Below are positions 1,685 to 53,964 of a stretch of DNA of 64,000 nucleotides, piece by piece. Each line of letters opens with the position of its first letter. Within the stretch, counting starts at the first letter, position 1. The notes under the pieces were generated by a model. The model saw nothing but the letters and a program-made list of their open reading frames with translations. It did not search any database and was not told the origin of the DNA. The stretch is from assembly GCA_963721405.1 (NCBI GenBank), contig CAVRJA010000002.1, positions 115,580 to 179,579 on the forward strand, given 5' to 3'. The DNA is from an uncultured Acidobacteriota bacterium. GTDB taxonomy: Bacteria; Acidobacteriota; UBA6911. The position numbers and the translations under genes are program-made.

Positions 1685-1782
1685 TGACACGTTCGATACA
1701 ACCGGTGTTTCAGGATCACCGAAGGCCGACGCTGACGTTTTGCGCCGGACATTGCCAATAATCTCGCGGATCGGAGGGGAAA

Positions 1783-5004: not shown

Positions 5005-5027
5005 CCCCGCGCGTCAGCGCGGGGTTT
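5005..5027 (+). terminator. Intrinsic-terminator-like hairpin
   Basis: ccccgcgc-gtca-gcgcgggg followed by ttt: a perfect 8-bp GC stem with a tetraloop. Confidence 0.45.
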
Positions 5028-8231: not shown

Positions 8232-8513
8232 ATGAGAACCACGGTGACTCTGGATAGAGATGTAGAGCGGATGGTGCGTGATGTCATGCACCGTTCCCGG
8301 CGATCTTTCAAGGAGACGTTGAATACCGCCTTGCGGGCTGGACTCGCCAAACCGGTTCGGGGCAGGAGCAGCCGCTTCGTGGTTAAGTCTCGCCCGATGC
8401 GGCTCCGCGCGGGCATTGATCCAACCAGCCTTAACAAGGTGGCGGACGCGCTGGAAGTCGATGCCTTTCTGGAAAAAATCGAAGGCAGCAGCAACCGCAG
8501 GAAGCGGGCATGA
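8232..8513 (+). CDS. vapB: VapB-type antitoxin
   Basis: MRTTVTLDRDVERMVRDVM... is an RHH-like N-terminus. The gene overlaps the downstream PIN gene by 4 nt (ATGA). Confidence 0.8.
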   Translation: MRTTVTLDRDVERMVRDVMHRSRRSFKETLNTALRAGLAKPVRGRSSRFVVKSRPMRLRAGIDPTSLNKVADALEVDAFLEKIEGSSNRRKRA

Positions 8514-8968
8514 TCGTCCCCGACATCAACCTGTTGTTGTACGTTTATGATTCCGACTCTCCGTTCCAGGTCAAGGCGGCTGCGTGGTGGCAAATGTGTC
8601 TGTCGGGAATCGAGCCCGTGGGTTTGGCGCCCGTGGTGATGTTCGGTTTCATCCGCATTGGATCCAGCTCCCGGGTATTCCAGAACCCGCTGACTCCTGC
8701 TGAAGCATCAGTGCACGTGCGCTCCTGGCTCGCCCAACCCGTCGCACAGATCGTGACGCCGGGCCCCGATCACATTCATCAGGTGCTCAAACTTGTCGAG
8801 ACGCTCGGCACGGCGGGGAACCTCGTGACCGATGCCCAGATTGCTGCTCTGAGCATGGAATATGGCGCCGTTTTGCACACCGCGGATGCTGATTTTCTGA
8901 GATTTCCAGGCTTGCGCTGGTTTAATCCCATCACCGGCGCCGCGAGCCGTAAGCTGCGCAAGGGTTAA
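8510..8968 (+). CDS. vapC: PIN-domain VapC-family toxin
   Basis: MIVPDINLLLY (first acidic residue), ...LVTDAQIAALSMEYGAVLHTADADFLRF (C-terminal PIN acidic residues). It is translationally coupled to vapB. Confidence 0.85.
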   Translation: MIVPDINLLLYVYDSDSPFQVKAAAWWQMCLSGIEPVGLAPVVMFGFIRIGSSSRVFQNPLTPAEASVHVRSWLAQPVAQIVTPGPDHIHQVLKLVETLGTAGNLVTDAQIAALSMEYGAVLHTADADFLRFPGLRWFNPITGAASRKLRKG

Positions 8969-25513: not shown

Positions 25514-27291
25514 ACGGGCCGGTTATGTCTCATGACCCTTGTGCACAAGGAGGCGTTCAGGCGCCACGGCCCCGGGTGAGCGGCCGCAACAACGCTGTCT
25601 GGCGGATACTCCTTGCATGGGTTGTGAGCCTGGCGGCAGGCATGCACGCAAACGCCGATGAGGCGAAGATCCAGACGACCTTTCCGGTGAAATACGTCAC
25701 CGCGGATTCCGTTTACCTCGAAGGAGGGAGCAACCTCGGCCTGGTGCAGGGTCAGAAACTGACCGTACAGCGCAAGAGCCCCGACGGGGGGCAGGCTGAA
25801 CTCAAGGTCGTAGGGAAAATCGAGATTGAAGCCGTCGCATCGGTTTCTGCGGTTGGGAAAATTGTTTCTTCCGATTCGCAGATCGTCGCCGGGGACGTCG
25901 CCTGTCTTTCCCCGGAAGATGTCGCAAAACTCAAGGCCGCGCAGTCTTCCGAAGATGCTGCGAAATATCCGCAGGTAGCCAGCTTCACGTCCGGCGATCC
26001 GCCGGACCAGGAAGTGAGGGATAGCCTGCCCCGGCCTCCTTCCCCGGAGGTCAACCACATTCGCGGGCGCATCGGATTTGACTACAGCAACCTGAGCAGC
26101 CCGTCCAGCGGGATTGGCTCCTTGCAGTACGGCTACACCATCAGGATCGAGGCAACCAGGCTGGGAGGCACATTCTGGAGCATCAGCGGTTTTCAGCGAG
26201 GCCGTGTGTACTCGCAAAATGACACATTGCAGCAGTCGACCTTGCGCGACCTCATCAACCGCACGTACCACCTGAGCCTCTCCTACAATAATCCCGAGTC
26301 GCGCTGGGTCGCGGGCATCGGCCGCCTCTATGTTCCCTGGGCCAGCAGCCTGAGCACCCTCGACGGGTTCTATCTCGGCCGCAGGTACGGCGCCGCCACG
26401 ATCGGCTTGTTCGGCGGGACAACCCCTGATCCGACCTCATGGAACTATAACCGCGATCGCCAGATGGCCGGCACGTTCGTGAATTTTACGGGCGGCAGTT
26501 TCGATTCGTGGCGATACTCAACGACCTCCGGGTTCGCTGTTTCCCGCATCAGCTGGCATCCGGACCGGCAGTTCGGCTTCTTTGAGAACGGGATCTTCTA
26601 CAAGCATTACCTCTCGGTCTACAGCGACATCGAGACCGATTTCAGGAACTCTTCGCAAAATGCGGGTCAATCCGGCTTTACATTCAGCCGCAGCTACCTT
26701 ACGGTCCGGTTGCAGCCGCACAAAATCATCAGTTTCGACGTGAGCGAGAACTACTTCCGCAACATCCCCACCTTCGATCCGCAGTTGATCGGCACGGGGT
26801 TGCTGGATCAGTTCCTGTTTCAGGGGGTCAGCGGCGGAGTCCGCCTCGAACTCCCGTTCCGGGTGGGGCTTTACTCGAATCTCGGCCGCAGCAGCCGGAG
26901 CGGCGATGCCAAGGATTCCTGGAACTACCTCTACGGCGCCACCGTCGGGAATATCTTCCGCACGGGAGTCCGGGCGGATGTCCGTTATTCCAAGTTCGAC
27001 AGCTCATTCGGCCAGGGGAACTACAGATCCCTGCTGGTGAGCCGCGAGATCGGAGAAGGATTCAGGTTCGACTTGCAGGCCGGGCAGGAAGAGGTGATTT
27101 CGACAGTAACCAGCCAGACTCGGGCCCGGTTTCTGAATGGCAACGCGGAGTGGCTGCTGCGCGGCCGCTATGTGCTCGGTCTGGGAATCACCGCCTTTCG
27201 CGGCCAGGTGCAGGATTACAACCAGTACTACATAAGCCTGGGCTATCGTTTCGACTTTCATCACGCCATCCGTGCGCAATCGATCCATTGA
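25510..27291 (+). CDS. Predicted outer-membrane beta-barrel protein with an N-terminal soluble domain, translationally coupled to the cytochrome
   Basis: Its ATG at 25510 overlaps the cytochrome TGA (ATGA). Signal peptide ILLAWVVSLAAGMHANA. About 120 aa of soluble domain, then about 430 aa of alternating-hydrophobic strands (YHLSLSYNN, WVAGIGRLYV, GFAVSRISW, YLTVRLQP, GGVRLELPFRVGLYSNLG, GVRADVRYSKF, YYISLGYRF). Confidence 0.7.
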   Translation: MNGPVMSHDPCAQGGVQAPRPRVSGRNNAVWRILLAWVVSLAAGMHANADEAKIQTTFPVKYVTADSVYLEGGSNLGLVQGQKLTVQRKSPDGGQAELKVVGKIEIEAVASVSAVGKIVSSDSQIVAGDVACLSPEDVAKLKAAQSSEDAAKYPQVASFTSGDPPDQEVRDSLPRPPSPEVNHIRGRIGFDYSNLSSPSSGIGSLQYGYTIRIEATRLGGTFWSISGFQRGRVYSQNDTLQQSTLRDLINRTYHLSLSYNNPESRWVAGIGRLYVPWASSLSTLDGFYLGRRYGAATIGLFGGTTPDPTSWNYNRDRQMAGTFVNFTGGSFDSWRYSTTSGFAVSRISWHPDRQFGFFENGIFYKHYLSVYSDIETDFRNSSQNAGQSGFTFSRSYLTVRLQPHKIISFDVSENYFRNIPTFDPQLIGTGLLDQFLFQGVSGGVRLELPFRVGLYSNLGRSSRSGDAKDSWNYLYGATVGNIFRTGVRADVRYSKFDSSFGQGNYRSLLVSREIGEGFRFDLQAGQEEVISTVTSQTRARFLNGNAEWLLRGRYVLGLGITAFRGQVQDYNQYYISLGYRFDFHHAIRAQSIH

Positions 27292-27303
27292 GGAGAAAGG
27301 GAG

Positions 27304-28101
27304 ATGAAGCCGACCGCCATTTCTATTCTGACCCTCGTCATGATGGGAGCGCACAGCATGCAGTTGCCGGCGGCGCGAGGAGTTGCGGGTTCCGACCTGC
27401 AGCTGGAGGAGGTTCTGGCGCATACGCGCAGGTCCGTGGAGTCATTCTGGCAGAAGATCTCCTCCGTCACATGCACAGAAACGCTGACGCAGCAAAAGAT
27501 CGGGAAGAAGGGCAAGGTTGAATTCAAACACGATTCCGTTTCTGACTACCTGTTGATTACTCATCGGAAAGGCAGCGATCTGAACCTCGAGGAATCGCGG
27601 CTGGTGAAAAAAAACGTCGACAAGTCGAAGGAGCGGCCGCTCCTGACGACCAACGGTTTTTCCACTCTGCTCCTGGTTTTCCATCCGCGCTACCGGGACA
27701 GCTACCGTTTTTACCTGGATGGGGACGATTTGATCGACGGGAAGAGGCTGATTCGGGTTCGATACGAACACGTCGCCGGGACGCCCTCGACGTCCGCTCT
27801 GGAGCTTCGAGGGCGGGTATATCCCTTGGACATGGAGGGAGTCGCATGGATTGATCCGGACACACAGGCGATCAGGAGAGTGAAGGCGGAGTTGAAGGCG
27901 CCCATGGACGACCTGAATCTCAAGGCGTTCTATGCCGTCGTGGACTACCGGCCGCAGCGGTTTGCCTCTTCCTCCGAGGTTTTCTGGCTCCCGTCTACCG
28001 CCGCGATCGACATCGAGACTGCGCGCCAGCACTGGCGGAATGTCCATCGTTTTGCGGACTACAAGCGGTTCTCGGTTGAAGAGAGGATAATATCGAAATG
28101 A
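27304..28101 (+). CDS. Secreted protein of unknown function in the cytochrome operon
   Basis: RBS GGAGAAAGGGAG. Signal-like N-terminus. There is a 12-nt gap to the upstream gene and an ATGA overlap with the downstream gene. I recognise no motif. Confidence 0.7.
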   Translation: MKPTAISILTLVMMGAHSMQLPAARGVAGSDLQLEEVLAHTRRSVESFWQKISSVTCTETLTQQKIGKKGKVEFKHDSVSDYLLITHRKGSDLNLEESRLVKKNVDKSKERPLLTTNGFSTLLLVFHPRYRDSYRFYLDGDDLIDGKRLIRVRYEHVAGTPSTSALELRGRVYPLDMEGVAWIDPDTQAIRRVKAELKAPMDDLNLKAFYAVVDYRPQRFASSSEVFWLPSTAAIDIETARQHWRNVHRFADYKRFSVEERIISK

Positions 28102-29057
28102 CTTCCGGAGAGAGCCAGGCCCAGAGCCAGGTCCAACCCCTAACCCTCACGGCGTTTCCGAACATCCAGAAGCGTTACCGGTGGTGGATGGTTGTGAGCA
28201 CGATGGCCGCAATTTTGCTGGCCGTCGTACTTACCGTTTACGGTTGGGATTATTACACCCTCGATCAGGCGCACCGCCCTTTCTCGCCCAAACATGCCGT
28301 GCTGAAGCCGAGCGGCATCATCGGCCTCCGCCTCGGCATCCTTGGACTCGGAATCTTTGCAGTCATCTACCTTTACCCGCTGAGAAAGCGCTGGGCGGCC
28401 CTGGGAAGAATCGGAAAGACAAAAAACTGGCTGGACTTTCATGTGCTCATGGGTCTGATCGCTCCCATAGTCATCTGCTTCCATTCGTCCTTCAAGATCC
28501 ACGGGTTCGCCGGGATGGCTTTCTGGACCATGATCGGGCTGACTCTAAGCGGCATGGTGGGACGATACTTCTACGCGCAGATTCCACGCAGCCTGAGCGC
28601 CGCCGAGCTGTCGTTGAAAGAGATGCAGACGCTCAGCGCAGAGTTGATGGCCGAACTGAACACGCAAAACGTCTTGCCGGAATCAGCGGTCGTGCGATTG
28701 GTGCGTCTCCCTGAAGGCGCGCGCGTGCAATCCATGCCGCTCCTCAGGGCCCTGGTGGAGATGGCGTGGCTGGACCTCTCACGCCCGTTCAGGGTCTGGG
28801 CTCTCAGGCGCCACGCAACGGGAATGAGTGGAAGCATCCTCACCTTGGGGGGCATCCTGCACACCAGGCAGGCGTCGCTCGAGCGTGTGATTTCTCTGGC
28901 TTCAAAACAGGCAGCCTTGTCGAAACGGGTGTTGTTTCTGGCCAAGACTCACGAGGTGTTTCACCTCTGGCACGTCATTCATCGGCCTTTCAGCATCTCA
29001 TTCGCCATATTCGTCCTCATCCACGTGACGGTGGTGCTGTGGCTCGGCTACTACTGA
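28098..29057 (+). CDS. Five-TM membrane protein with two H-x13-H helices (ferric-reductase-domain / di-haem-b-like)
   Basis: TM3 is DFHVLMGLIAPIVICFH and TM5 is VIHRPFSISFAIFVLIH, each with His-13 residues-His. About 130 aa of soluble loop lies between TM4 and TM5. Confidence 0.7.
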   Translation: MTSGESQAQSQVQPLTLTAFPNIQKRYRWWMVVSTMAAILLAVVLTVYGWDYYTLDQAHRPFSPKHAVLKPSGIIGLRLGILGLGIFAVIYLYPLRKRWAALGRIGKTKNWLDFHVLMGLIAPIVICFHSSFKIHGFAGMAFWTMIGLTLSGMVGRYFYAQIPRSLSAAELSLKEMQTLSAELMAELNTQNVLPESAVVRLVRLPEGARVQSMPLLRALVEMAWLDLSRPFRVWALRRHATGMSGSILTLGGILHTRQASLERVISLASKQAALSKRVLFLAKTHEVFHLWHVIHRPFSISFAIFVLIHVTVVLWLGYY

Positions 29058-34313: not shown

Positions 34314-34586
34314 TCAGCTGTCGATGTGGACGGAATCCACGATGCCCACAATGACCGAGATGACGCAGGCGTCGGGATTCCCGAGCACCTGGCGAGCGCC
34401 GTTCCCTTCGCGATTCACGAGCACTGTGTCGCCGACTCCCGCCTGCGTGTTGTCGAGGGCGATGAAATCCGCATCGGGCGATTCATCTTCGAGCCCCAGC
34501 GGCTGCACCACCAGCAAGCGGCGGTTCTTGTAATCCCGGTGGCCGATGGTCGTCACCACGGTGCCCACTACTCTTGCCAGTATCAT
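34314..34586 (-). CDS. BMC-P pentameric vertex protein (EutN/CcmL/PduN family), copy 3
   Basis: MILARVVGTVVTT...RRLLVVQPL...ALDNTQAGVGDTVLV..G..AR... Confidence 0.9.
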   Translation of the reverse strand: MILARVVGTVVTTIGHRDYKNRRLLVVQPLGLEDESPDADFIALDNTQAGVGDTVLVNREGNGARQVLGNPDACVISVIVGIVDSVHIDS

Positions 34587-34595
34587 CGCCGGCTC

Positions 34596-34916
34596 TTACG
34601 CATAGTTGTTCCAGCCGCGTTTCATGACCAGATCGAACATATGGTCGGGGTGGACGCACAATTCATCGACGACTCCCACCAGCGCCAGGTCGACGGGCAC
34701 AAACTTCACATCGGGCATCGCGAGGGCCGCTTCGCGCGATCGCACCATTAAACAGAGATCTCCAGTGCCGGCGTCCACGACGTCCGCCGCCACCTGGAGC
34801 GGTCCCGCCGGCTCCATTTTCTTGTTCAGCGGCTGTACCACCAGCAGTTTCAACCCCTCGGTGCCCGGGTACTTGATGGTGCAGACTGCCGTTCCCCTGA
34901 CTCTGCCGAACAACAT
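34596..34916 (-). CDS. BMC-P vertex protein (EutN/CcmL family), copy 2, with a C-terminal extension
   Basis: MLFGRVRGTAVCTIKYPGTEGLKLLVVQPL...AADVVDAGTGDLCLMVRSREAA... Confidence 0.85.
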   Translation of the reverse strand: MLFGRVRGTAVCTIKYPGTEGLKLLVVQPLNKKMEPAGPLQVAADVVDAGTGDLCLMVRSREAALAMPDVKFVPVDLALVGVVDELCVHPDHMFDLVMKRGWNNYA

Positions 34917-34921
34917 ATAAG

Positions 34922-35317
34922 CTATTTCATTCCCGTACTTTTCAGTACGCGTTTTATGATCACATCCAGCAGGTTCGCATCGACTTGCGTTCCGAGTCGG
35001 GCCGCCACCGCATCGCGTATGTGCTGCTGCAATTCGCTCCCTTCGTCCTTGCCTGCCTCAGGACAGCCCTGAGAAGGCGCACCCGGGAGGGCGCCCACCG
35101 GAGAGGCGGAGGGCGCCGCCGGCATTTTTGAAATGTAGGGGCGAACCGGGGCGGCGGGCGGCGTGTCCGGCTTGTCGTGCACCAGTTTCATCCCTTTCGA
35201 TCGGGCTTTCTCGTATGCCAGTTCGGTCAGTACGACCCTGTCGTTGAGTTCCAGCGACAGGATGCCGCGCTTGACCATGTCCTCAATGTCTTTCTCGGTA
35301 TAAAACTCTCTGGGCAT
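34922..35317 (-). CDS. BMC-locus protein of unknown function: folded N-terminal module, Pro/Ala linker and C-terminal amphipathic helix
   Basis: The ATG at 35317 follows AGGAG. MPREFYTEKDIEDMVKRGILSLELNDRVVLTELAYEKARSKGMKLV, then PDTPPAAPVRP...PAAPSASP, then ELQQHIRDAVAARLGTQVDANLLDVIIKRVLKS. Confidence 0.65.
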   Translation of the reverse strand: MPREFYTEKDIEDMVKRGILSLELNDRVVLTELAYEKARSKGMKLVHDKPDTPPAAPVRPYISKMPAAPSASPVGALPGAPSQGCPEAGKDEGSELQQHIRDAVAARLGTQVDANLLDVIIKRVLKSTGMK

Positions 35318-35351
35318 ATACACTCCTGGCCAAATCTCTTCGGAATTCGCA

Positions 35352-35981
35352 TCAGGCGCCGGCTCGACCCGGCAGGCTTTCCAGCGCCTGGACGGCCGCA
35401 TTCCTGGCCGTCAGGATCTCAGCCTCCGTCCCGGAGAGCCACAAGCGGCCGAATCTCCCCACGGACGACACATGAACAATCTTGATGCTCGCGGTCTTTT
35501 CCGCCTCGTTGCAGGCGAAATTAATGTAGGCCGCGGGGGCGCATTCCAGCACCAGCATCGTTTCCCCGGGGACGAGCATGCTGCCGCGGCGGAACCGGTT
35601 CAGCAACTGCGCCTGGTACGGATCGATGCGGGTGATGACCTGGGTGGAAACTACCAGCGGCCTGATTCGGTCTTCAACGCTGAGGCCGAGACGGTCAAGA
35701 ACCACGCTTCCTGCCTCGAGAACAGAGGCCTGGCTGAGCGAGTGCACCTCGAACATGCCGAATTCCCGCTCGACGATCTGCGCACCCGGCCTGGCCTCTG
35801 TCGCCTTCACGGCAATATCCACCACGCGGAACACCTCGTTTCCCGGGGCCATCTCCACGTAAAGAGCCGCCATCCCTTCGGTCGGCAGGTCCCCCTGGGT
35901 CACGGTGCCGATGAACGCGGCGAATTGCGGTTGCATGCGGTCGAGGTAGCAGTAACAGCGCAGCGAAAGAGCTTCACCCAT
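35352..35981 (-). CDS. BMC-T tandem-domain shell protein
   Basis: About 209 aa with two BMC-like halves (..ALYVEMAPGNEVFRVVDIAVKATEARPG.. and ..MLVLECAPAAYINFACNEAEKTASIKIV..). Confidence 0.75.
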   Translation of the reverse strand: MGEALSLRCYCYLDRMQPQFAAFIGTVTQGDLPTEGMAALYVEMAPGNEVFRVVDIAVKATEARPGAQIVEREFGMFEVHSLSQASVLEAGSVVLDRLGLSVEDRIRPLVVSTQVITRIDPYQAQLLNRFRRGSMLVPGETMLVLECAPAAYINFACNEAEKTASIKIVHVSSVGRFGRLWLSGTEAEILTARNAAVQALESLPGRAGA

Positions 35982-36017
35982 GATCTGACTCCATTCAGCA
36001 CTATTGACTTGTGTCGT

Positions 36018-36236
36018 TCAATGCCATTCCCCGGCCAGAGGCAACCCAGTCCCGTCCAGCACGACGAGCACGAGATAAGCGGTCCCCAGATCCACCCCCA
36101 CTCTCAGCTTCCGTCCCGCCTCGAGCTTCAAAGGCGGAGCGGTCTCCGAAAGTTGTCGGGGAAGGATCGAGACCTCCGCGCGAGTCAGGTACCGGGCGAG
36201 GCTCATGCCTGCCGGCAAGCGTCCGTTCGTCGTCAC
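36018..36236 (-). pseudogene. EutJ-like (actin/Hsp70-fold ATPase) N-terminal remnant
   Basis: ...KLRVGVDLGTAYLVLVVLDGTGLPLAGEWH* carries only the phosphate-1 motif. A full EutJ is about 280 aa by my recollection. The next gene starts 36 nt downstream, so the remainder is deleted. Start is GTG. Confidence 0.45.
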
Positions 36237-36278
36237 AACTGCACCCCGGAATTTTCCACAAGTCTGAATGCCGGCCGG

Positions 36279-36605
36279 CTACTTGCCTTCCGGACTGCGG
36301 CCGCCGATGGTCCCCTTGCTGCTCTTCGGCAGGATCATCTCCACGTCGGAGTGCGGCCGCGGAATGACGTGCACGGAAGTCAGCTCGCCGACACGCTTGG
36401 CAGCCGCTGCGCCGGCGTCAGTCGCGGCTTTGACGGCGCCGACATCCCCGCGCACCATCACGGTCACGTAGCCGCCGCCCACATACTCCGAGCCGATCAG
36501 GACCACGTTCGCGGCCTTGACCATCGCGTCCGCAGCCTCGATGGCGCCGACCAACCCGCGTGTCTCCACCATTCCAAGAGCGATCACAGAACTGTCGAAT
36601 GCCAT
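36279..36605 (-). CDS. BMC-H hexameric shell protein (PduA/EutM/CcmK family)
   Basis: [30 protein letters not shown]...[23 protein letters not shown]. The ATG at 36605 follows AGGAAGGAAG; the alternative ATG at 36629 would add 8 aa. Confidence 0.9.
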
Positions 36606-36650
36606 GTCTTCCTTCCTTTCATTAGTCAATGACTTCCCTGCACTTCATGA

Positions 36651-38114
36651 TCAGCCAACATGTCTTGTTGCCAGAACCTCGCGCACGACCTGCTGGACCA
36701 GACGCTCAATCTCCTCCGGGGACGGCCCGGTGGGGACCTCGCCCCGCTGGAAGGCCTCCAGAGGCGGGGCAGCGGTTGCATATGCCAGTCTCTTGATGTT
36801 GATCAGATGCGATGCTGTGATGTTGTCGCCGGTGATAGCGCCGCCGAGACCGCCCGAGCCCAGGGTCATGGAGGGCATCACTCCGGTCGTCAGCCCGACC
36901 GCGCCCAGCGTCCCCATCGTGTTCACGAGGATTCTGAAGACCGGCTTTTCCAGGCCGAAGGCCATGATAATGCGGTCATCGCTGGCGTGGATGATCTGAG
37001 TGTGGCCACGGCCGCCGCTTTCAAGGATGGCAATGGAAGTGTCGCAGCCCTGCTCCCACCCGTCGACCTCGTACCAGCCGAGCACCGTGGTCAGTTTTTC
37101 CAGGGAGAGCGGCTCGTCCTTACCCACCTTCCGGAGCGGCGTCACGAGAATTCGCGCCTCGGGCGGGATGCGGAAGCCTGCATAGGCCGCCACATGCGCG
37201 GCCGACTTTCCGACTATGGCCGTGTTGATGCTCCGGTCGGGATGGAAGACCGCCTGGCGCAGCGCGTCGGTCTCCTGCGGATTCGTGAAATAGGCGCCCT
37301 CTGCCCGCATGACTTCGGCCAATCGTCCCGCGACCGGCCGGTCCGCGACGACCGATTGTTCGGTGGCGCAGATTGTGGAGAAATCAAACGCCTTGGAGGC
37401 AACGATGTAGCGCCCGGCCTTTTCGAGGTCGGCGCTCCGGTCCACGTAGACTGGCACGTTCCCCGGCCCCACGCCGTATGCCGGTTTGCCCGTGCTGTGG
37501 GCCGCCCTTACCATCGCGGTCCCGCCTGTAGCAAGGATGATTGCGGTGTGGCGGTGACGCATCAGCTCCTGAGTCCCCGGCAGGGATACCTGCCGCATGC
37601 AGCCGATCAATCCCTGGGGCGCGCCTGCAGCCTCGGCAGCCGTCGCCATGGTCCGCGTCGCCTCGTGGGTGCAGCGCACGGCGGCCGGATGAGGGGCAAT
37701 GATGATGCCGTTGCGCGCCTTGACGGAGATCAGGATCTTGTTGAATGCCGTCGACGTCGGGTTGGTGGAAGGGACCAGAGCCGTCACCACGCCCATCGGA
37801 GATGCAATTTCGTACAAGCGGCGGTCAGGATCGTGGCGGAGGATACCCACGCTCCTCAGGTCGCGGATGCTTTGCCACACGCCGCGCGAGCCGAATTCGT
37901 TCTTCAGTTTCTTGTGCGCGGCAACTCCATACCCGGTCTCCTCCTGCGCCATCCGCCCGATCCGCTCGGACGCCTGGTATCCGGCTTCGGCCATCGCCTC
38001 GCAAACACGGTCCACCTCGGCCTGCGACGCCCGGCTCCAGGTTTTCCAGGCCTCGTGAGAAGCGTTGGCCAGGTCGCGCGCCTCCTGGATCGATGAAAGG
38101 TCATTGTCGAGCAT
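36651..38114 (-). CDS. CoA-acylating aldehyde dehydrogenase (EutE/PduP-like) with a C-terminal encapsulation-peptide-like helix
   Basis: [22 protein letters not shown] and the catalytic-Cys region [12 protein letters not shown]. The tail is [27 protein letters not shown] at 38114. Confidence 0.9.
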
Positions 38115-38268
38115 GGTGGTCTTCGTCCTCGATGCGGCCGGGACGCCGGACAGAGCCGTGAGCGTGAGCCAGCGGGTGCGCGCAAGGCCCGATCTCAATT
38201 CGGCCGTGCGCTCTCTTGTGCCCGCTTACAGACGCGCGCGGCACTGTTGTACGTGCCATGTCGCAGGG

Positions 38269-38562
38269 TCACCTCGTTTTTCGGAATACGACGGACCCGT
38301 CCACTTCCAGCGAATCGATCACGGACATGATCACCGCATCGACCGGAGTGTCCTTCGTGATGTTCGTCTGCCTGGCCGACGAGCCGGCGCAGGTGAGCAC
38401 CAGGTCGCCGACACCCGAGTCCACCGTGTCGACGGCCACATAGGGCTTGCCGGCCGGGTTGCCCTGCTCGTCCGCCGGCCGGACGACGAGCAGTTTCCGG
38501 CCCACAAGCTTCTCATCCTTGATGGTCGAGACCGTGGTCCCTATGACTCTGGCTATCAGCAT
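38269..38562 (-). CDS. BMC-P vertex protein (EutN/CcmL family), copy 1
   Basis: MLIARVIGTTVSTIKDEKLVGRKLLVVRPAD...AVDTVDSGVGDLVL. Confidence 0.9.
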   Translation of the reverse strand: MLIARVIGTTVSTIKDEKLVGRKLLVVRPADEQGNPAGKPYVAVDTVDSGVGDLVLTCAGSSARQTNITKDTPVDAVIMSVIDSLEVDGSVVFRKTR

Positions 38563-38578
38563 GACAGGCCTCCCGGAA

Positions 38579-39505
38579 CTAATAATTCCTGCCGACGGCG
38601 GCAGCCTCGGTGGACTTCCCGGCGGAGGGGCCCTGAATGATCTTGACCCCCGCGCTGGCGCCGATGCGCGTGGCGCCGGCTTTGATCATGTTTTCGGCGT
38701 CCGCATACGTGCGCACGCCACCGGCGGCCTTCACCCCCATTCCCGGACCCACGACCCGGCGCATCAGCGCCACATCGTGGACGGTCGCGCCGCCGCTCGC
38801 GAAGCCGGTCGATGTCTTCACGAAATCGGCGCCGGCTTCCTTTGAAAGCAGGCAGGCAATTGTCTTCTCCTCGTCCGTCAGGAGCACCGCTTCGATGATC
38901 ACTTTGACGATCGCACTGCGGGCGTGAGCCGCGGTTACGACCCAAATGATGTCCCGCGCGACCAACTCCAGGTCGCGCGCTTTGAGGGCGCCGATGTTGA
39001 TCACCATGTCGATCTCCGTTGCACCGTGCTCGAGGGCGGTCTGACATTCGAAAGCCTTGACCTCAGGCGACGTCGCCCCGAGCGGAAAGCCGATGACGGT
39101 GCACACCTTGACGGGAGATCCCTCGAGGAGTTGCGCGCTCAGCTTCACCCACGTCGGGTTGATGCACACGGAGGCGAAGCCGTACTTGCGCGCTTCGAAG
39201 CAGAGCTGGGCGATCTGGTCCGGGGTCGCCTCAGGTTTGAGAAGCGTGTGATCGATCATCTTCGACAGACTCATGTCCTGCGGGATCACGCCGATGGTCG
39301 ACGACAGCCGCTCCGCACCGGCGCTTACGACGCTGCCTGCGCGGTCGAAACAGGTTCGAACGCACATCCCTTCCGCGCAGTCGAACTTGCACTGGCCGCA
39401 TCCGGCGGGCGCCTTGGCCCGTTCCTGCTTCTCCATCATGGCCACCAACACTTCGCGGGCGATGACTTCGACGAGTTGTTCCGCGGTTCTAATGTCCGGG
39501 ATCAT
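38579..39505 (-). CDS. deoC: Deoxyribose-phosphate aldolase (DERA) with an ~85-aa N-terminal extension (amphipathic helix plus five-Cys motif)
   Basis: The core has [43 protein letters not shown] and the Schiff-base Lys region FVKTSTGF. The extension is [19 protein letters not shown]...[17 protein letters not shown]. Confidence 0.9.
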
Positions 39506-39515
39506 GGAATAGCCC

Positions 39516-40106
39516 CTACTTTAAATACAGTTTCTCGATCGCCGTGATCTTGTCGACACGCCGGGCATGGCGTCCCCCGCCGTACCCAGTCGACAGCCAG
39601 GTCTTGACGATTTGTTTGGCGAGGTTGACGCCGATCAGGCCGGCCCCCAGGGTCAGCACGTTTGTGTCGTTGTGCTCGCGGCCGTTTACCGCAGTGGAAT
39701 AGTCATAAGCCATCCCTGCGCGTACGCCGGGGAGCTTGTTGGCCACGATGCAGCTGCCGATGCCGGCGCCGTCGATGACGATTCCCCGCCAGGCCTTCCC
39801 CATGCTGACCAGATGAGCAACCTGATGGGCAAAATCGGGATAATCCACCGCCTCTTTGCTGTTGGTCCCGGTGTCGATGACATCAAATCCCATCCCGGCC
39901 AGGTCCGCCTTCAGGGTTTCCTTCAGATCGAAGCCGCCATGGTCGGCCCCGATGGCGACGATTTTGAGTTCCGGGATTTGAGGTTCGGCCTGAGGCGCAG
40001 TTTCCTCAGGGCGCGGCGCATCGGGGCTGGCAGCAGAGAGCCCCAAGGCCTGGTTGAGCACTCGCTGTACGATTTGCCGGATTTCCGTATCAGACTGGTC
40101 GCTCAT
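39516..40106 (-). CDS. rpiB: RpiB/LacAB-family sugar-phosphate isomerase with an N-terminal encapsulation-peptide-like extension
   Basis: The core is [16 protein letters not shown]...DYPDFA...[21 protein letters not shown]...[13 protein letters not shown]. The extension is [19 protein letters not shown] plus a Pro/Ala/Glu linker. Confidence 0.9.
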
Positions 40107-40125
40107 GCCACCATCCTTGTTGGTT

Positions 40126-40143
40126 ATGTGGTAGTGACCACAT
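40126..40143. promoter_or_regulatory. Operator-like inverted repeat in the BMC operon leader
   Basis: ATGTGGT-agtg-ACCACAT is a perfect 7-bp inverted repeat. It lies between the predicted -10 element and the rpiB RBS. A GT..AC core is typical of GntR-family operators. Confidence 0.35.
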
Positions 40144-40147
40144 GACC

Positions 40148-40176
40148 AGACTACATCACTATATCGGCACTGTCAA
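40148..40176 (-). promoter_or_regulatory. Possible sigma-70-type promoter of the BMC operon
   Basis: Read on the minus strand: TTGACA (40176-40171), a 17-nt spacer, TAGTCT (40153-40148). This is about 40 nt upstream of the rpiB ATG. Confidence 0.35.
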
Positions 40177-40244
40177 CAAAATTGTGAATAAGAAGTTCTG
40201 GGTTATCTGGAACGGGCACCGGAAAACGATCGCGTTGGGAGAAT

Positions 40245-40537
40245 AGAAGTCAGGAGCCAGGAGTCAGGAGATGGGGGTGGGGGAATTGTTGGAAGCCAGG
40301 AGATGGGGGTAGGGGAATTGTTGGACACCCACAGACGGATATGAACTTCGTGGGAACTTCGTGGGGAACTTCGTGGACACCCACAGACGGGTATCGTAAG
40401 TGCGTCACCCGGGGAAAAAAGGAGTCTGGAGATGGGGGTTGGGTGCTGGGGGGCAGGGATCGGGAGTTGGAAAAACTGTTGGACACCTACAGCCTATTCT
40501 GACTTCCGACTCCCGACTCCTGACTTCTGACTCCTGC
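40245..40537. repeat. Composite short-tandem-repeat block bounded by inverted (a)ggagtcagga-type arms
   Basis: caggagatgggggt[g/a]ggggaattgttgga occurs twice (40265-40293, 40297-40325) plus a degenerate third copy near 40426-40483. ttggacacc[c/t]acag occurs three times (40321, 40374, 40478). gaacttcgtgg occurs three times in tandem (40343-40376). The left arm gaagtcaggagccaggagtcaggag is the reverse complement of the right arm ctcctgacttctgactcctg (40518-40537). Confidence 0.85.
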
Positions 40538-40541
40538 CTTT

Positions 40542-41297
40542 TTACCGTGTCAGTTTCGCGATGTAGCGATACCGGTCGCCGCGATAGAGGATCTTTACGA
40601 ACTCGATTACGCGCCGGTATTGGGAATAGGTCGTGCGCTCGCTGACCAGCAGAGGGCTGCCGGGCTCGATTTGCAGCAGAAACGCCTCGCGCGGCGTCGC
40701 CAACGCCACCTCCAGGGTCTCATCCGCTTCGGACGGGATCAGATGGAACCGCTCCTGCAGCATGCGGTAGATGGAGCCGTATTCTTCCAGGTCGGCGCGA
40801 CGTATGGTTTGCCCTTCGGGAAGCAGGTAATAAGAAGTCTGCAAACCCATCGGCACGCCGTCGCCCAGGCGGAGACGTTCGATGCACAGCACTCTTTCAA
40901 CCTCGGCAGGCAGCTCGAGGCGGGTGGCCACGGCTTCTGAGGGCCGCACATACCTGATTTCCAGGATCTTCTGTCCCGGCACGATTCCCCGCCGCCTCAT
41001 GTCCTCGGTAAAACTAGTCAGCTCGGAGATTCCTTTCTGCAGCTTCTGAGGCGAGACAAAGGTTCCCTTGCCGTGCTCGCGATACAGGAAGCCCTGGCGA
41101 ATCAGCAGCTCGATAGCCTGGCGAATGGTGGTGCGGCTGACGGAGAAGTCCTTCTCCAACTGGCGCTCGGAAGGGATCGGCTCGAGGGCGGCGAGCTCCC
41201 CCCTGGAGATCCGCTCGCGCAGGATATTCGCCAGCTGATAGTACCGGGGCAGGAAACCGTTGGGATCGACTATATCGGGCATCTTCCCCCGCTCCAT
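40542..41297 (-). CDS. GntR-family (HutC/UTRA subfamily) transcriptional regulator
   Basis: wHTH LPSERQLEKDFSVSRTTIRQAIELLIRQGFLYREHGKGTFV, followed by a UTRA-like C-terminal domain. Confidence 0.85.
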   Translation of the reverse strand: MERGKMPDIVDPNGFLPRYYQLANILRERISRGELAALEPIPSERQLEKDFSVSRTTIRQAIELLIRQGFLYREHGKGTFVSPQKLQKGISELTSFTEDMRRRGIVPGQKILEIRYVRPSEAVATRLELPAEVERVLCIERLRLGDGVPMGLQTSYYLLPEGQTIRRADLEEYGSIYRMLQERFHLIPSEADETLEVALATPREAFLLQIEPGSPLLVSERTTYSQYRRVIEFVKILYRGDRYRYIAKLTR

Positions 41298-41495
41298 CGA
41301 CAGCGTGACATCATGTGGTAGCTACCATTCGATTATCCCGCTCTTCCCCTGATCACGTCAAGCTCTCTCCGTCTTGGCAGACTCTATTCGAGTCTCTACC
41401 CCCGAAGAGGTGCATTACCTCAATAGAATCAGCCGGCGGCTCAAATAAAGAAACCACGACGAGTCGCGAGAAGTCTCGACGGTCCTTGTTCCATC

Positions 41496-46447: not shown

Positions 46448-46801
46448 ATCCCGGGCGGCAGTGCGCCTCCGTCCCTGGCGACCGCGCTGTGATCCCGCCG
46501 CACGAGGCACTGTTCCGGAATCAGCAGTCGCGGTCTGTTTGTAGACCGGGCTGAAGCCCGCGGCCACAGGAATGGTTTGCGCCTGGCGGAAGATTCATCG
46601 AGCTTTGGGCGTTAGCCTGCCCGGATTGATCGATCGCTTCCACTGTAACTGCTAATTTTTTTTACATCAGGGCGATTCCATTGAGCAGCAAAGGTTTAGT
46701 TGCTGACTGCTAAATATTTGTACACCCGATCACCGAAGGCCCGTTCGTGACCATTCGTGTTATTTGTTTGTGATGGAAGCATTTATGGAGTTGGCGCGCA
46801 A

Positions 46802-46817
46802 TGGCACGGAAGATGCT
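46802..46817 (+). promoter_or_regulatory. Sigma-54-type -24/-12 promoter candidate
   Basis: TGGCAC-ggaag-ATGCT has canonical GG-N10-GC spacing. It lies 70 nt upstream of ATG 46887 and just downstream of an AT-rich stretch. Confidence 0.4.
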
Positions 46818-46886
46818 TATAGGCTATTGGACAAATCGAAGGAAAAACGAGATCGACAACCGGCACAGGTAAAAGGGGAACCGAGG

Positions 46887-47888
46887 ATGAGCACTCAACC
46901 AAGAGTTTTGATCGTGGACGACGAAGCAGCCCTGCGCAGGCAACTGATGGTGGGACTGGCCCAGCATGGGTACGAAGTGGACGAGTGTGAGGAAGGGCTT
47001 TCCGCGCTCACGAAGATCAAGGCGGCTGAAGCGAAGCAGAAACCGTTCTCCTGTGTGATTCTGGATGTCCGGCTCCCGGATATAGACGGAATAAAGATCC
47101 TATCGGTCATCCGAGCCGCCTACGCCGATCTCCCGGTGGTGGTCATTACGGGGTTTGGCACGCGGGACATGATGGACACGGTCCAGAATCAAGGCGGCAG
47201 CGTATACCTCGACAAGCCGTTTGGCATGGACACCCTGGTATCGCTGCTCGACCGCTTTGAGGAAAAGGCGGAGGGGAGGGCAAAGCCCAGGCCTGACGCC
47301 GAACCGCAGACGCCGACAAGCGCGCTGGTATTCGTCCGCGGGGAGAAGGAGGCGGATCTGTCCGAGATTTACTCCAAGCTCTGTTTTGCCGATGGAGTGT
47401 GTTATTGTGACCCGGTGCTCGGCGAATGGGACCTGGTTCTGCTCGTGCAGGCCCCGAACCGCAAGAGCATCGAACAGATCGTTCATCGTCACCTGAGATC
47501 CGTGAAGGACGTGGAAGCCTTCGAAATCCACTATTGCGAGAAGCCGGTGATTTCGAAAGAGCTCGAGGAATTCATCCATGATTATGAGAAAGTGCAGGCC
47601 ATGGAAAATGCGGATGGCGGGACGATGGACGGGCGGAACGTGCGCATGCTCACTTCGTATGCCATTCTCGACGTGGATCCTGCCAGGCTGTCGAGCCTGT
47701 ACATGAAGCTCAAGTTTACGGACAACGTCGTTCACTGCGACGTGACCGACGGCGGCAATCAGATTGTCCTGCTCTTGCAGGGGATCTCGGCACAGGAGAT
47801 CCAGTCGGCCGTTCGAAACGAGATCCGCATGATTCCTGGGGTGCTCCGCATCAAGCAGCTCAGCGCCCTGAATTTCTCAACCAAATAA
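46887..47888 (+). CDS. Response regulator with a REC domain followed by two Lrp/AsnC-type RAM (ligand-binding) domains and no DNA-binding domain
   Basis: REC: VLIVDDEAALR...ILDVRLPDIDG...VVVITGFG...YLDKPF. Then two units of about 75 aa: ALVFVRGEKEADLSEIYSKLCFADGVCYCDPVLGEWDLVLLVQAPN...VKDVEAFEIHY and YAILDVDPARLSSLYMKLKFTDNVVHCDVTDGGNQIVLLLQGIS...IPGVLRIKQL. Confidence 0.75.
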   Translation: MSTQPRVLIVDDEAALRRQLMVGLAQHGYEVDECEEGLSALTKIKAAEAKQKPFSCVILDVRLPDIDGIKILSVIRAAYADLPVVVITGFGTRDMMDTVQNQGGSVYLDKPFGMDTLVSLLDRFEEKAEGRAKPRPDAEPQTPTSALVFVRGEKEADLSEIYSKLCFADGVCYCDPVLGEWDLVLLVQAPNRKSIEQIVHRHLRSVKDVEAFEIHYCEKPVISKELEEFIHDYEKVQAMENADGGTMDGRNVRMLTSYAILDVDPARLSSLYMKLKFTDNVVHCDVTDGGNQIVLLLQGISAQEIQSAVRNEIRMIPGVLRIKQLSALNFSTK

Positions 47889-47906
47889 CCCCAGGACAGC
47901 GAGTTC

Positions 47907-48461
47907 ATGAATCAGCCAGAACGTGAATCCAGCAGAGTAGCGCCAGCCGCATTCGCCCGAATGCTGTGGCGGCATCGCGGTGAGCCTGGGATGCTCATTC
48001 CGCTTCTGCAGGCGGCCCAGGACAGCTATGGTTTTGTTCCCCCGCTTGCCATCGAGCAGATCTCGGACGCAACCGGAATTCCCACGGCGGAGATATACGG
48101 CGTCATCACGTTCTACAAGCAGTTCCGCTTGAAGCCTCTCGGCCGGCACATCATCCGGCAGTGCAAAGGGACGGCTTGCCATGTGGTCGGCGCGGAGACG
48201 ATCGGCCAGGTGCTGGCAGACGAGCTTCATGCCGCTCCCGACGAAACGACGGAGGACGGGCTCTTTACGTACCTGGTGGTGGCTTGTTTGGGATGCTGCA
48301 GTCTGGCGCCCGCCCTGATGATCGATGATCAGACTTACGGCCGCCTGACCCCACAGAAGGTGCGCAAGCTGATTCGCCAGTATCGCCGGGATGCCGCCAG
48401 GGCTGCCGAACGGCCGCCCTCGAAAGCGGCGGCGTCCATCGGAGCCGTCCCGGAGGCTTAA
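47907..48461 (+). CDS. NuoE/HoxE-like [2Fe-2S] subunit
   Basis: LIPLLQAAQDSYGFVP...EIYGVITFYKQF...CKGTACHVVG...VACLGCCSLAPALMID. Confidence 0.9.
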   Translation: MNQPERESSRVAPAAFARMLWRHRGEPGMLIPLLQAAQDSYGFVPPLAIEQISDATGIPTAEIYGVITFYKQFRLKPLGRHIIRQCKGTACHVVGAETIGQVLADELHAAPDETTEDGLFTYLVVACLGCCSLAPALMIDDQTYGRLTPQKVRKLIRQYRRDAARAAERPPSKAAASIGAVPEA

Positions 48462-48473
48462 GCGGAGGGTTTT

Positions 48474-50222
48474 ATGCAGGAAGTGTTGGTCGGACTCGGT
48501 TCGTGCGGCCTCGCCGCCGGCGGCCTGAAGGTGTACCAGCGGTTCGCGGAGCTGCTCGAACCCGACAAGAGCCGAGCCATCCTCAAGAAAACCGGCTGCA
48601 TCGGCATGTGCTACGCCGAAGTCCTCGTCGAAGTGAGAGACGGGAGCGGCGGCAGCACACTCTACGGCAATATTTCTCCCGAAAGAGTCGGCCGCATCGT
48701 CGAAGATCACCTCAAGAAGGGGAAGGTGGTCTCCGAGTGGGTGACGGACGCGGCGGTGTCGACGGCCAGGCAAAGGCGTGTGGTGCTGCGCAACTGCGGC
48801 ATCATCGACCCGGACAGTCTCGACGAGTATCTTGCGCGTGAGGGCTATCAGGCGCTGCAGAAGGTGCTCTCGGAGATGACCCCTGCGGATGTCGTCGCAG
48901 TTATCGCCGGCTCGGGTCTCAGGGGCCGGGGTGGCGCCGGTTTCCCCACAGGCACGAAATGGCGTTTGGCCGCCGCCGCAAAGGACGCGCACAAGTATGT
49001 CATCTGCAACGCCGACGAAGGGGATCCGGGCGCATTCATGGACCGGAGCGTCCTGGAGGGGGACCCGCATTCGGTGCTCGAGGGCATGGCGATCGCAGCA
49101 TATGCGATCGGCGCGGACACCGGCTATATCTATGTCAGGGCCGAGTACCCCGAAGCGGTGAAGCGGCTCCGACACTCCATCGCGCAGGCGACGGCGCGCG
49201 GCTACCTCGGCAGCAACATCCTGGGGAAGGGGTTCCATTTCAACGTAAAGCTCAAGGAAGGCGCCGGCGCGTTCGTCTGCGGCGAGGAAACCGCGCTGAT
49301 CGCCTCGGTGGAGGGCCGGCGCGGCATGCCGAAGGTGCGGCCCCCGTTCCCCGTCGAATCCGGCCTCTGGGGCCATCCCACATGCATCAACAACGTCGAA
49401 ACGCTCGCCAATGTCGCCTGGATCATCCTGCACGGCGCCGAGGCGTTCAACGCCTGCGGCACCGCCGGTTCCAAGGGGACCAAGGTGTTTGCCCTCGCCG
49501 GCAAGGTCAAGAGAGGCGGCCTGGTCGAAGTCCCCATGGGGATGACCATCAACGAGGTCATCTACGAGATCGGCGGCGGCACACTGCTGGGAGGAGAGTT
49601 TAAGGCGGTGCAGATGGGAGGCCCATCGGGCGGCTGCATCCCGGCCTCACTGGGCAACACACCGGTCGATTATGAGCAGATCACCGCCACCGGCGCCATC
49701 ATGGGATCAGGCGGCATGGTGGTCATGGACGAGACCACCTGCATGGTGGACGTGGCGCGGTTCTTCCTCTCATTCACCCAGAACGAGTCGTGCGGGAAAT
49801 GCACTTTCTGCCGTGTCGGAACAAAACGGATGCTGGAAATCCTCGAGCGCATCTGCACCGGCAAAGGGAAGCCGGAAGATGTCGCCATGCTTTCCGAGCT
49901 TGGAGAACAGATCAAATCGAGTTCCCTGTGCGGACTGGGGCAGACTGCGCCCAATCCCGTGCTGACGACGCTCCGCTACTTTCTGCACGAGTACGACGCG
50001 CACATCAAGGACAAGAAGTGCCCCGCCAAATCATGCCTCACCCTCGTCGAGTTCTCCATCATCGCCGATGCCTGTTCCGGCTGCGGGCTCTGCCTCGCGG
50101 CATGCGATGTGGGCGCGATCACCGGCGAGAAGAAAGCGGCACACCGGATTGACGCCCTGAAGTGCATCCGCTGCGGCAAGTGCATCACGGTCTGCAACCA
50201 GGGCGCGATTGAAAAGCGATAA
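48474..50222 (+). CDS. NuoF/HydB-like FMN/NADH-binding subunit with an N-terminal thioredoxin-like [2Fe-2S] domain and a C-terminal 2x[4Fe-4S] ferredoxin domain
   Basis: RBS GGAGGG. GRGGAGFPTGTKW, NADEGDPGAF, ESCGKCTFCRVG, then CSGCGLCLAAC...CIRCGKCITVC. Confidence 0.9.
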   Translation: MQEVLVGLGSCGLAAGGLKVYQRFAELLEPDKSRAILKKTGCIGMCYAEVLVEVRDGSGGSTLYGNISPERVGRIVEDHLKKGKVVSEWVTDAAVSTARQRRVVLRNCGIIDPDSLDEYLAREGYQALQKVLSEMTPADVVAVIAGSGLRGRGGAGFPTGTKWRLAAAAKDAHKYVICNADEGDPGAFMDRSVLEGDPHSVLEGMAIAAYAIGADTGYIYVRAEYPEAVKRLRHSIAQATARGYLGSNILGKGFHFNVKLKEGAGAFVCGEETALIASVEGRRGMPKVRPPFPVESGLWGHPTCINNVETLANVAWIILHGAEAFNACGTAGSKGTKVFALAGKVKRGGLVEVPMGMTINEVIYEIGGGTLLGGEFKAVQMGGPSGGCIPASLGNTPVDYEQITATGAIMGSGGMVVMDETTCMVDVARFFLSFTQNESCGKCTFCRVGTKRMLEILERICTGKGKPEDVAMLSELGEQIKSSSLCGLGQTAPNPVLTTLRYFLHEYDAHIKDKKCPAKSCLTLVEFSIIADACSGCGLCLAACDVGAITGEKKAAHRIDALKCIRCGKCITVCNQGAIEKR

Positions 50223-50232
50223 AGGAATCGAG

Positions 50233-53907: not shown

Positions 53908-53964
53908 CGGTCGAGCCCGGGTCGAGGATCGGGTAGTATTGGGCGCGAGAGGAAGACTTACTCT

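Follow-up and report, generated by a model that had tools for sequence, protein, structure and literature searches.

The 64,000-nt stretch of contig CAVRJA010000002.1 analysed in this study (referred to below as the window, whose numbering is used throughout) carries, at positions 34314-41297 of its minus strand, a bacterial microcompartment (BMC) locus of the sugar-phosphate (SPU) class. It is probable that this locus is a complete metabolosome operon of the SPU6 type, which was gained as a cassette by an Acidobacteriota (Terriglobia-like) genome. SPU compartments are among the most widespread BMC types, and a role in recycling the debris of DNA in soils and sediments has been suggested for them. 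The SPU loci have been split into seven subtypes (PMC8217296).

SPU6 is the experimentally studied subtype, with a model operon from Chloroflexi bacterium GWB2_54_36 (Dwyer, Sutter and Kerfeld 2024, PMC11585597). Its published inventory, comprising a GntR regulator with a UTRA domain, RPI, DERA, an aldehyde dehydrogenase (AldDH), one BMC-H, one BMC-Tdp and three BMC-P shell proteins, is also the inventory of the window locus. According to the same study, an encapsulation peptide (EP) at the C-terminus of AldDH occurs only in SPU6, and this subtype lacks PduS and does not typically contain a phosphotransacylase (PTAC). An earlier, sequence-only reading of the window had assigned the locus to the SPU class; this assignment holds, given the gene set and the synteny with the SPU6 model locus, and can be sharpened to subtype SPU6. 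The accompanying statement that no SPU compartment had been characterised biochemically is outdated, since the DERA and RPI of SPU6 have been purified and assayed (PMC11585597).

Gene content and class assignment of the locus

Genes were called from a listing of the open reading frames (ORFs) and from Pfam and NCBIfam scans. These recovered every gene of the locus, on the minus strand and in the order first noted, including the GntR/HutC regulator and the eutJ remnant that the sequence-only reading had described. The identified features are as follows.

40542-41297, minus strand: GntR/HutC-family regulator with a UTRA effector domain (Pfam GntR, E 3.9e-18; UTRA, E 2.7e-34)
40121-40148, no strand: candidate operator, a 28-nt near-perfect palindrome (inverted repeat and motif conservation)
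39516-40106, minus strand: RpiB-like protein, the 'RPI' of SPU loci (LacAB_rpiB, E 1e-50, residues 50-187)
38579-39505, minus strand: DERA (deoC), the signature enzyme (TIGR00126, 278 bits; cutoff 117)
38269-38562, minus strand: BMC-P copy 1, pentamer vertex protein (EutN_CcmL, E 6e-29)
36651-38114, minus strand: CoA-acylating acetaldehyde dehydrogenase, AldDH (TIGR02518, 539 bits)
36279-36605, minus strand: BMC-H, hexamer shell protein, the only BMC-H of the locus (Pfam BMC, E 6e-29)
36018-36236, minus strand: eutJ pseudogene stump of 72 codons (NF011660 EutJ, E 7e-7)
35352-35981, minus strand: BMC-Tdp, a CcmP-like tandem-domain, stacking, gated trimer (NF053796 CcmP, 257 bits, residues 5-207)
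34922-35317, minus strand: 131-aa protein without a family match (ortholog conservation)
34596-34916, minus strand: BMC-P copy 2 (EutN_CcmL, E 6e-21)
34314-34586, minus strand: BMC-P copy 3, the last gene of the cassette (EutN_CcmL, E 1.6e-20)

Three start codons were set with the aid of orthologous proteins. The start of AldDH was placed at the ATG at 38114 rather than at the TTG at 38198 because its orthologs have 486-487 aa, and that of the 131-aa protein at the ATG at 35317 because its orthologs have 131-135 aa. The start of BMC-H was set to the ATG at 36605, which matches the ortholog consensus MALD...; this protein is 82-93% identical to its orthologs. The domain scans thus recovered one BMC-H, one CcmP-like BMC-Tdp and three BMC-P proteins, a complement which, as predicted from these domains, can supply a shell.

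The window ORF scans revealed no signature enzymes of the PDU, EUT and GRM types, an assignment to any of which would have contradicted placement in the SPU class. EutB, EutC and EutA had no match among the window ORFs, and the scanned ORFs contained no Pfam domain of a B12-dependent diol dehydratase or of a glycyl-radical enzyme and its activase.

For comparative purposes, a set of 80 related loci was collected from GTDB genomes by a profile scan with the 131-aa protein. The set includes L036, a contig of Chloroflexi bacterium GWB2_54_36 that represents the published SPU6 model locus. L010, another member, comes from the cultured Longilinea arvoryzae KOME-1. Approximately 48 of the 80 loci show the complete series of genes from rpiB through to the last BMC-P, and about 17 more differ only by the presence of eutJ between the BMC-H and BMC-Tdp genes; the place of BMC-P copy 1 between DERA and AldDH is conserved. 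The closest copies are found in L006, from a Terriglobia metagenome-assembled genome (MAG), with 76-82% DNA identity, and in L022, from a Sulfurifustaceae MAG. DNA similarity to the related loci stops at the locus edges (at about 34322-34330 on the side of the last gene), and the flanks are unlike. The lack of flank similarity to the closest copies therefore indicates that the cassette has moved between phyla. The occurrence of an SPU6 cassette in an Acidobacteriota-like genome, with 72-82% DNA identity to copies from Chloroflexota and Proteobacteria, underlines its mobility.

The cassettes of one Anaerolineae clade (about 10 sister loci, e.g. L065, 1545-2228, and L076, 11761-12333) are flanked by genes for a deoxynucleoside kinase and a dCMP deaminase. 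This arrangement may be consistent with a link to deoxynucleotide metabolism, or may represent mere lineage synteny.

DERA and its RpiB-like partner

The DERA of the window scores 304 bits against the DERA structure 6D33 and retains the catalytic residues D166, K230 and K259, which correspond to D165, K229 and K258 of the model enzyme (PMC11585597). The rpiB-like gene ends 10 nt upstream of the DERA gene. The window and L036 proteins are 66-74% identical for DERA and RPI.

The designation 'RpiB' given by the sequence-only reading is appropriate with respect to membership of the LacAB_rpiB family, but is overstated with respect to function. Alignment with structure homologs placed Asp112 at the position of the catalytic Cys66 of E. 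coli RpiB, and Ala114 at that of Thr68, so the protein has neither of the two residues by which a functional RpiB is recognised. The Asp-His, His-Asn, Arg and other substrate-binding residues are kept. Since HMM scores still exceed the rpiB equivalog cutoff, automatic annotation will mislabel this protein. The Cys-to-Asp change is present in all SPU RPIs, and the RPI of the SPU6 model has little or no ribose-5-phosphate isomerase activity, forms an approximately 1:1 complex with DERA and leaves the DERA kinetics unchanged (PMC11585597). On the basis of these residues, the RpiB-like protein is probably a catalytically altered packaging partner of DERA.

Under a different interpretation, the Asp-variant RpiB-like protein would isomerise another phosphosugar that feeds DERA, or DERA would act in the direction of condensation, with deoxyribose-5-phosphate not being the physiological substrate. 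The RpiB family has broad specificity and Glu replaces the catalytic Cys in the RpiB of M. tuberculosis (PMC11585597); moreover, all other substrate-binding residues are retained in the window protein and an RPI gene is present in all complete loci. We nevertheless consider this interpretation highly unlikely, given that the orthologous DERA has ordinary catalytic residues and cleaves deoxyribose-5-phosphate, that the orthologous RPI shows the properties described above (PMC11585597), and that Thr68 has also been replaced, by Ala114.

The N-terminal extension of DERA, comprised of 78 residues, was predicted by AlphaFold2 to form an amphipathic helix (residues 5-30) followed by two strands (38-44 and 47-53). 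The predicted beta-hairpin (38-53) holds four cysteines, C39, C43, C48 and C52, arranged as C-x3-C-x4-C-x3-C. These are invariant in 32 database homologs and conserved in at least 90% of 65 locus orthologs. Most of the divergent representatives (35-45% identity) also have four cysteines, with the altered spacing C-x1-3-C-x3-4-C-x3-C, and one has three. The SPU6 paper (PMC11585597) contains no mention of them. The predicted hairpin, modelled with low confidence in this part, would pair C39 with C52 and C43 with C48; the cysteines may form a Zn or Fe-S site, or cross-strand disulfides.

A word-index search with the 80-residue extension of DERA retrieved 9 fragments, and an exhaustive search 53 clusters, in which the match is nearly always located at or near the N-terminus. 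Both full-length members of DERA size (309-310 aa) carry the module N-terminally, while most other matches are fragments. In view of its N-terminal placement in the full-length members, the module is probably specific to DERA.

AldDH and the encapsulation peptides

AldDH scores 458 bits against structure 5J78 over residues 3-452, with the catalytic-Cys motif TICATEQ aligned. As judged from these alignments, the catalytic residues of both DERA and AldDH are intact. Homologs of solved structure align with the RpiB-like protein only from residue 47-50 and with DERA only from residue 77-80, and stop at residue 452 of AldDH; the three enzymes therefore carry extra terminal segments.

The sequence-only reading had attributed to these segments the amphipathic character of EPs, and this was confirmed by the structure alignments, by the hydrophobic moments and by conservation among orthologs. 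The peptides are located at residues ~7-22 of the RpiB-like protein, where a Pro/Ala linker follows, and at residues ~466-483, i.e. C-terminally, in AldDH. The peptides quoted in that reading are the most amphipathic 14-mers of the respective extensions, with moments of 0.63 (RpiB-like protein), 0.73 (DERA) and 0.86 (AldDH), values reached in 35, 23 and 1 of 1000 shuffles of the extension, respectively. The three enzyme peptides are conserved in 54-66 orthologs (54 for that of AldDH), with the consensus VEQLVEIITREVLVA for DERA and PEEIERVVRQVVNEIL for AldDH. The N-terminal helices of RPI and DERA and the C-terminal helix of AldDH share the pattern [DE]x[IL]xx[IV][IV]xxV[LI], and the end of the 131-aa protein is similar.

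Cofactor recycling

No PduL, Pta, acetate kinase, Fe-dependent alcohol dehydrogenase (Fe-ADH) or zinc-dependent alcohol dehydrogenase (Zn-ADH) domains were found in the ORFs scanned across the 64-kb window, and a tblastn search of the window for Zn-ADH was also negative. PF01512 (PduS) and PF06130 (PTAC) had no match in any locus gene. These domain scans bear out the claim that the locus contains no phosphotransacylase, alcohol dehydrogenase or acyl-kinase. The resulting gap in recycling had been put forward as an open question; it has already been published for SPU6 (PMC11626177, PMC11585597). SPU6, together with EUT3, ARO, MIC2/3, PVM-like and RMM/AAUM loci, belongs to the types with neither NAD+ regeneration system, the mechanism of which 'has yet to be determined' (PMC11626177). 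It has been proposed that acetyl-CoA leaves via the BMC-Tdp pore, and SPU types without PTAC typically encode Tdp (PMC11585597); Tdp proteins may also pass large cofactors (PMC8217296).

The BMC-Tdp of the window scores 217 bits, over its full length, against the CcmP structure 4HT5. Its Glu-Arg pair (IVEREFG) aligns with that of CcmP (FIERLYG), which we take to be the pore-gating residues of the latter.

Recycling could take place inside the shell after all, if an EP-tagged alcohol dehydrogenase, a PduL-type phosphotransacylase or a PduS-like NADH dehydrogenase were encoded at a satellite locus outside the window. Satellite loci of SPU6 are known from the literature, some SPU6 loci contain an alcohol dehydrogenase of pfam00465 (PMC11585597), and the contig, with a length of at least 514 kb, extends well beyond the 64-kb window. 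In L036, a TetR gene and a gene for a zinc-type alcohol dehydrogenase/oxidoreductase (1074-3113) lie on the opposite strand between the GntR and RPI genes. This insertion is confined to L036, however; among the other 79 loci, only L062 gave a weak match to the Zn-ADH (26% identity). The sequence-only reading had suggested that the rest of the genome be searched for satellite pduL/adh genes; the search covered the 64-kb window, where none was found, and the 10-kb flanks of the 80 related loci, where EutG-like alcohol dehydrogenase and EutD-like Pta were absent in 80 of 80. Considering also that SPU6 has been listed among the types with neither regeneration system (PMC11626177), we regard internal recycling as unlikely.

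The NuoE/NuoF-like genes of the window (47907-50222) were examined as a possible substitute for PduS. They were rejected, being located on the plus strand, 7 kb away, in a separate operon, and encoding NuoF-type domains rather than a PduS-like domain make-up.

Joint absence of AldDH and BMC-Tdp

Ten of the 80 related loci contain neither AldDH nor BMC-Tdp (L056, L069; L025, L067, L070, L072, L080, L082; also L057, L062). All of them keep RPI, DERA, the 131-aa protein and the three BMC-P proteins. The gene order of these minimal loci is RPI-DERA-BMC-P-BMC-H-131aa-BMC-P-BMC-P, with BMC-H retained in 9 of 10 (L070 is without it). None of the complete loci lacks just one of the pair. L061 has partial copies of both genes, which probably result from deletion or misassembly.

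A tree of six concatenated markers was constructed, which included the eight AldDH/Tdp-less loci that possess all of the markers (L057 and L062 were left out), together with a tree of DERA. The eight loci constitute two clades, each with a bootstrap value of 100/100, and their joint monophyly was obtained in 1 of 100 replicates. The retained BMC-H gene sits between the AldDH and Tdp genes, and a single deletion therefore cannot explain the joint absence. This is the pattern that functional coupling of a cofactor-using enzyme with a large gated pore would predict.

The 131-aa protein

A homolog of the 131-aa protein was left as 'hypothetical' in the description of the SPU6 model locus (PMC11585597). 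Profile searches identified neither a Pfam domain nor a PDB relative. Its detectable homologs number 1859 and have lengths of 125-157 aa; the protein occurs only in this kind of locus. The protein consists of (i) a strongly conserved N-terminal module of ~60 aa (MPKEFYTExDIEDMVKRG...LTELAYEKA...PPxAPVRPY), (ii) a variable Pro/Ala linker and (iii) a conserved C-terminal helix pair ending in LLDVIIKRVLKSTG (consensus LLDVIIxRVLxSTG). AlphaFold2 predicted four short helices with a mean pLDDT of 55.7, and no fold was assigned; such low-confidence helices fit a flexible adaptor. Wherever a related locus has sufficient flanking DNA, the gene for the 131-aa protein directly precedes the final two BMC-P genes, and this includes the minimal loci that lack AldDH. 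From this conservation we propose that the protein may act as a core scaffold or adaptor.

One further homolog (56% identity) was detected in L037 (162-518), in a terminal position on a contig that has low coverage and was assigned to the bin of a Promethearchaeota archaeon. The genes that come after it encode TPR, ribosomal S2 and GH127 proteins rather than BMC-P, and the contig may be chimeric or mis-binned.

Regulatory region and the eutJ remnant

Orthologs of the GntR/UTRA protein (74-88% identity) are encoded upstream of the rpiB-like gene in approximately 35 related loci, including L036, and the protein is the probable repressor of the operon, as suggested by its family and conserved position. 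The palindrome at 40121-40148, TGGTCATGTGGT-CACT-ACCACATAACCA, is located 15-42 nt upstream of the start codon of the rpiB-like gene and has 12-nt arms that are 92% complementary. Its core, ATGTGGTCAYWACCA, is found exactly in 33 related loci including L036, and in practically every case it is on the coding strand, shortly before the rpiB-like gene. A second copy of the motif precedes the GntR gene in several loci. Within the window, the motif was detected at 2 overlapping positions, both on the palindrome (0 and 3 mismatches), versus 0.10 expected, and no shuffle gave 2. The motif is similar to operators of the HutC family, e.g. the dre site of DasR/NagR. This palindrome is a candidate operator of the GntR protein.

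Between the GntR gene and the operator lies a repeat-rich segment of ~300 nt (40245-40540), containing 32-34-nt direct repeats, tandem GGGAACTTCGTG units and runs of GGAGTC-type heptamers; the corresponding spacers of related loci have ~100-250 nt. A pair of imperfect inverted repeats of 35 nt (40247-40281 and 40506-40540; 80% complementary) forms its borders. Neither the window nor the 80 related loci contain another copy. The segment may be an insertion resembling a miniature inverted-repeat transposable element.

The eutJ stump shares 64% identity with the first 72 residues of the full-length EutJ (289 aa) that L004 and L083 encode at this position. The similarity breaks off at a stop codon, 37 nt before the BMC-Tdp gene. 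The same short eutJ is present in the independent assembly ERR12037368. A full-length eutJ occupies this position in 17 related loci, and most of the 80 loci are without eutJ. The gene is disrupted at other points in L018, L040, L043 and L051, which rules out the stump as a selected mini-protein. As deduced from this distribution, eutJ is a case of repeated gene loss among related loci. The occurrence of eutJ, whole or as a stump, in SPU6 loci agrees with the kinship that has been reported between SPU6 and EUT3 (PMC8217296).

The reduction of eutJ to 72 codons, together with the repeat-rich stretch between the regulator gene and the operator, might signal that the whole locus is a decaying, non-functional relic. 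We judge this extremely improbable. Each of the ten remaining genes has its full length, their catalytic and structural residues are conserved, and the operator and its place beside the rpiB-like gene are preserved; moreover, eutJ is missing from the majority of SPU6 loci that appear intact, the model locus among them.

Proposed function of the compartment

The compartment probably breaks down deoxyribose-5-phosphate derived from DNA, by analogy with the characterised SPU6 enzymes. In the scheme that we propose, (i) the GntR/UTRA protein would act on the palindrome in front of the rpiB-like gene and keep the operon repressed until an effector, a sugar phosphate, builds up, (ii) the EPs, the RPI-DERA complex and the 131-aa protein would condense the cargo, around which the shell would close, (iii) deoxyribose-5-phosphate would enter the shell and be converted by DERA into glyceraldehyde-3-phosphate and acetaldehyde, and (iv) AldDH would trap the acetaldehyde as acetyl-CoA, with the reduction of NAD+ to NADH. 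Regeneration of CoA and NAD+ is absent from the operon. Its likeliest route, and the least certain step of the scheme, would be an exchange of acetyl-CoA/CoA and NADH/NAD+ with the cytosol via the gated BMC-Tdp pore.

We put forward, tentatively, as a possibility that is more doubtful than the class assignment, that SPU6 is an 'open-cofactor' metabolosome without internal NAD+/CoA recycling, in which the gated Tdp would serve as a conduit for NAD(H) and CoA esters, the 131-aa protein would act as a scaffold that bears an EP and is associated with the BMC-P pair, and the DERA hairpin with its four cysteines would constitute a metal or redox site. If true, the open-cofactor reading would explain why Tdp is gained or lost together with AldDH.

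Several points weigh against the proposed operon function and scheme. The link between Tdp and cofactors rests on two independent co-absence events, i.e. a small sample, and the genomes without AldDH at the locus may encode AldDH and Tdp elsewhere. Satellite genes were looked for in 64 kb out of the contig's 514 kb or more; the paired RHxH motif of PduL had no match in the window or the loci, a weak negative obtained by a crude motif search. The targeting of cargo by the EPs is predicted from sequence alone, and the C-terminal helix of the 131-aa protein is weakly amphipathic (moment 0.56, reached by 265 of 1000 shuffles), though its sequence is EP-like. Asp or Glu can stand in for the catalytic base in some RpiB relatives (PMC11585597), and the RPI-like protein may have another isomerase activity. 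Finally, our search of the literature yielded no published account of an assembled shell or a native compartment for SPU6.

The locus alone raises no new question. The leads for the cofactor and assembly problem of SPU6 are comparative and independent of this particular window: the co-absence of AldDH and Tdp, the EP-like tail of the 131-aa protein, the Cys4 of DERA, and the operator.

Other features of the window

In the plus-strand operon at 46764-56837, the gene for a response regulator that carries an AsnC-type domain is accompanied by those for a NuoE-like 2Fe-2S protein, a flavoprotein resembling NuoF and a fusion protein of 1232 aa, which combines 2Fe-2S, GltD-like flavin reductase, 4Fe-4S and molybdopterin oxidoreductase domains; genes for a histidine kinase and a sigma-54 activator follow. 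The operon apparently encodes a molybdoenzyme complex linked to NAD(P)H, for formate or another substrate, and has no connection with the BMC. Downstream (57116-61561, plus strand) lies a gene for a 1481-aa protein in which two BcrAD/BadFG ATPase domains are fused to a DUF2229 CoA-enzyme-activase domain.

The region 23012-29057 (plus strand) encodes an 833-aa multihaem cytochrome, which has an MtrC-like domain in addition to c7/c3 repeats; the three ORFs behind it (602, 265 and 319 aa) have no Pfam match. The region may represent an extracellular electron-transfer module. At 8232-8968 (plus strand), a small ORF overlaps the start of a PIN-domain gene; the two are probably a toxin-antitoxin pair of the VapBC type. 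The window also contains a match to the Acido-Lenti-1 small RNA (4979-5024, minus strand; 38.4 bits, versus a gathering score of 37) and encodes CarboxypepD_reg/OMP beta-barrel proteins. Both features, along with the acidobacterial nature of the nearest loci, make an acidobacterium the probable host.

Comparison with known systems

The window locus and the SPU6 model locus, L036, agree in gene order (GntR ... RpiB-DERA-P-AldDH-H-Tdp-131aa-P-P), with protein identities of 58-88% and a DNA identity of 72-74% across 34330-41337. The two loci also share the Cys-to-Asp change of RPI, the catalytic triad of DERA (offset by one residue), the C-terminal EP of AldDH and the operator motif upstream of RPI. 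They differ in their hosts, which belong to the Anaerolineae in the case of L036 and are Acidobacteriota-like in that of the window. In addition, L036 contains no eutJ, whereas the window has the 72-codon stump between BMC-H and Tdp; the TetR and Zn-ADH genes inserted between GntR and RPI in L036 have no counterpart in the window, whose GntR-RPI spacer instead holds the ~300-nt repeat-rich insert.

Subtypes SPU1-5 and SPU7 (PMC8217296) resemble the window locus in having DERA with an N-terminal extension as a signature, an acylating AldDH and a BMC-P triplet. In these other subtypes, AldDH carries an N-terminal EP and a PduS homolog is present, neither of which was found in the window locus. 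SPU1, SPU4 and SPU7 differ further in containing PTAC and often TPI, with no Tdp, whereas no PTAC or TPI was found in the window locus, and Tdp is present.

EUT3 is similar to SPU6 in that the AldDH and BMC-Tdp clades of the two types are neighbours (Sutter 2021, PMC8217296) and in that it has no known NAD+ regeneration system (PMC11626177). Unlike EUT3, neither the window nor the 80 related loci contain EutA, EutB, EutC or an EutL-type shell protein, the sole exception being one weak EutA-like match in L071. The BMC-Tdp of the window shares with CcmP of beta-carboxysomes its full-length alignment (217 bits, 4HT5) and the Glu-Arg pair, but its context is catabolic.

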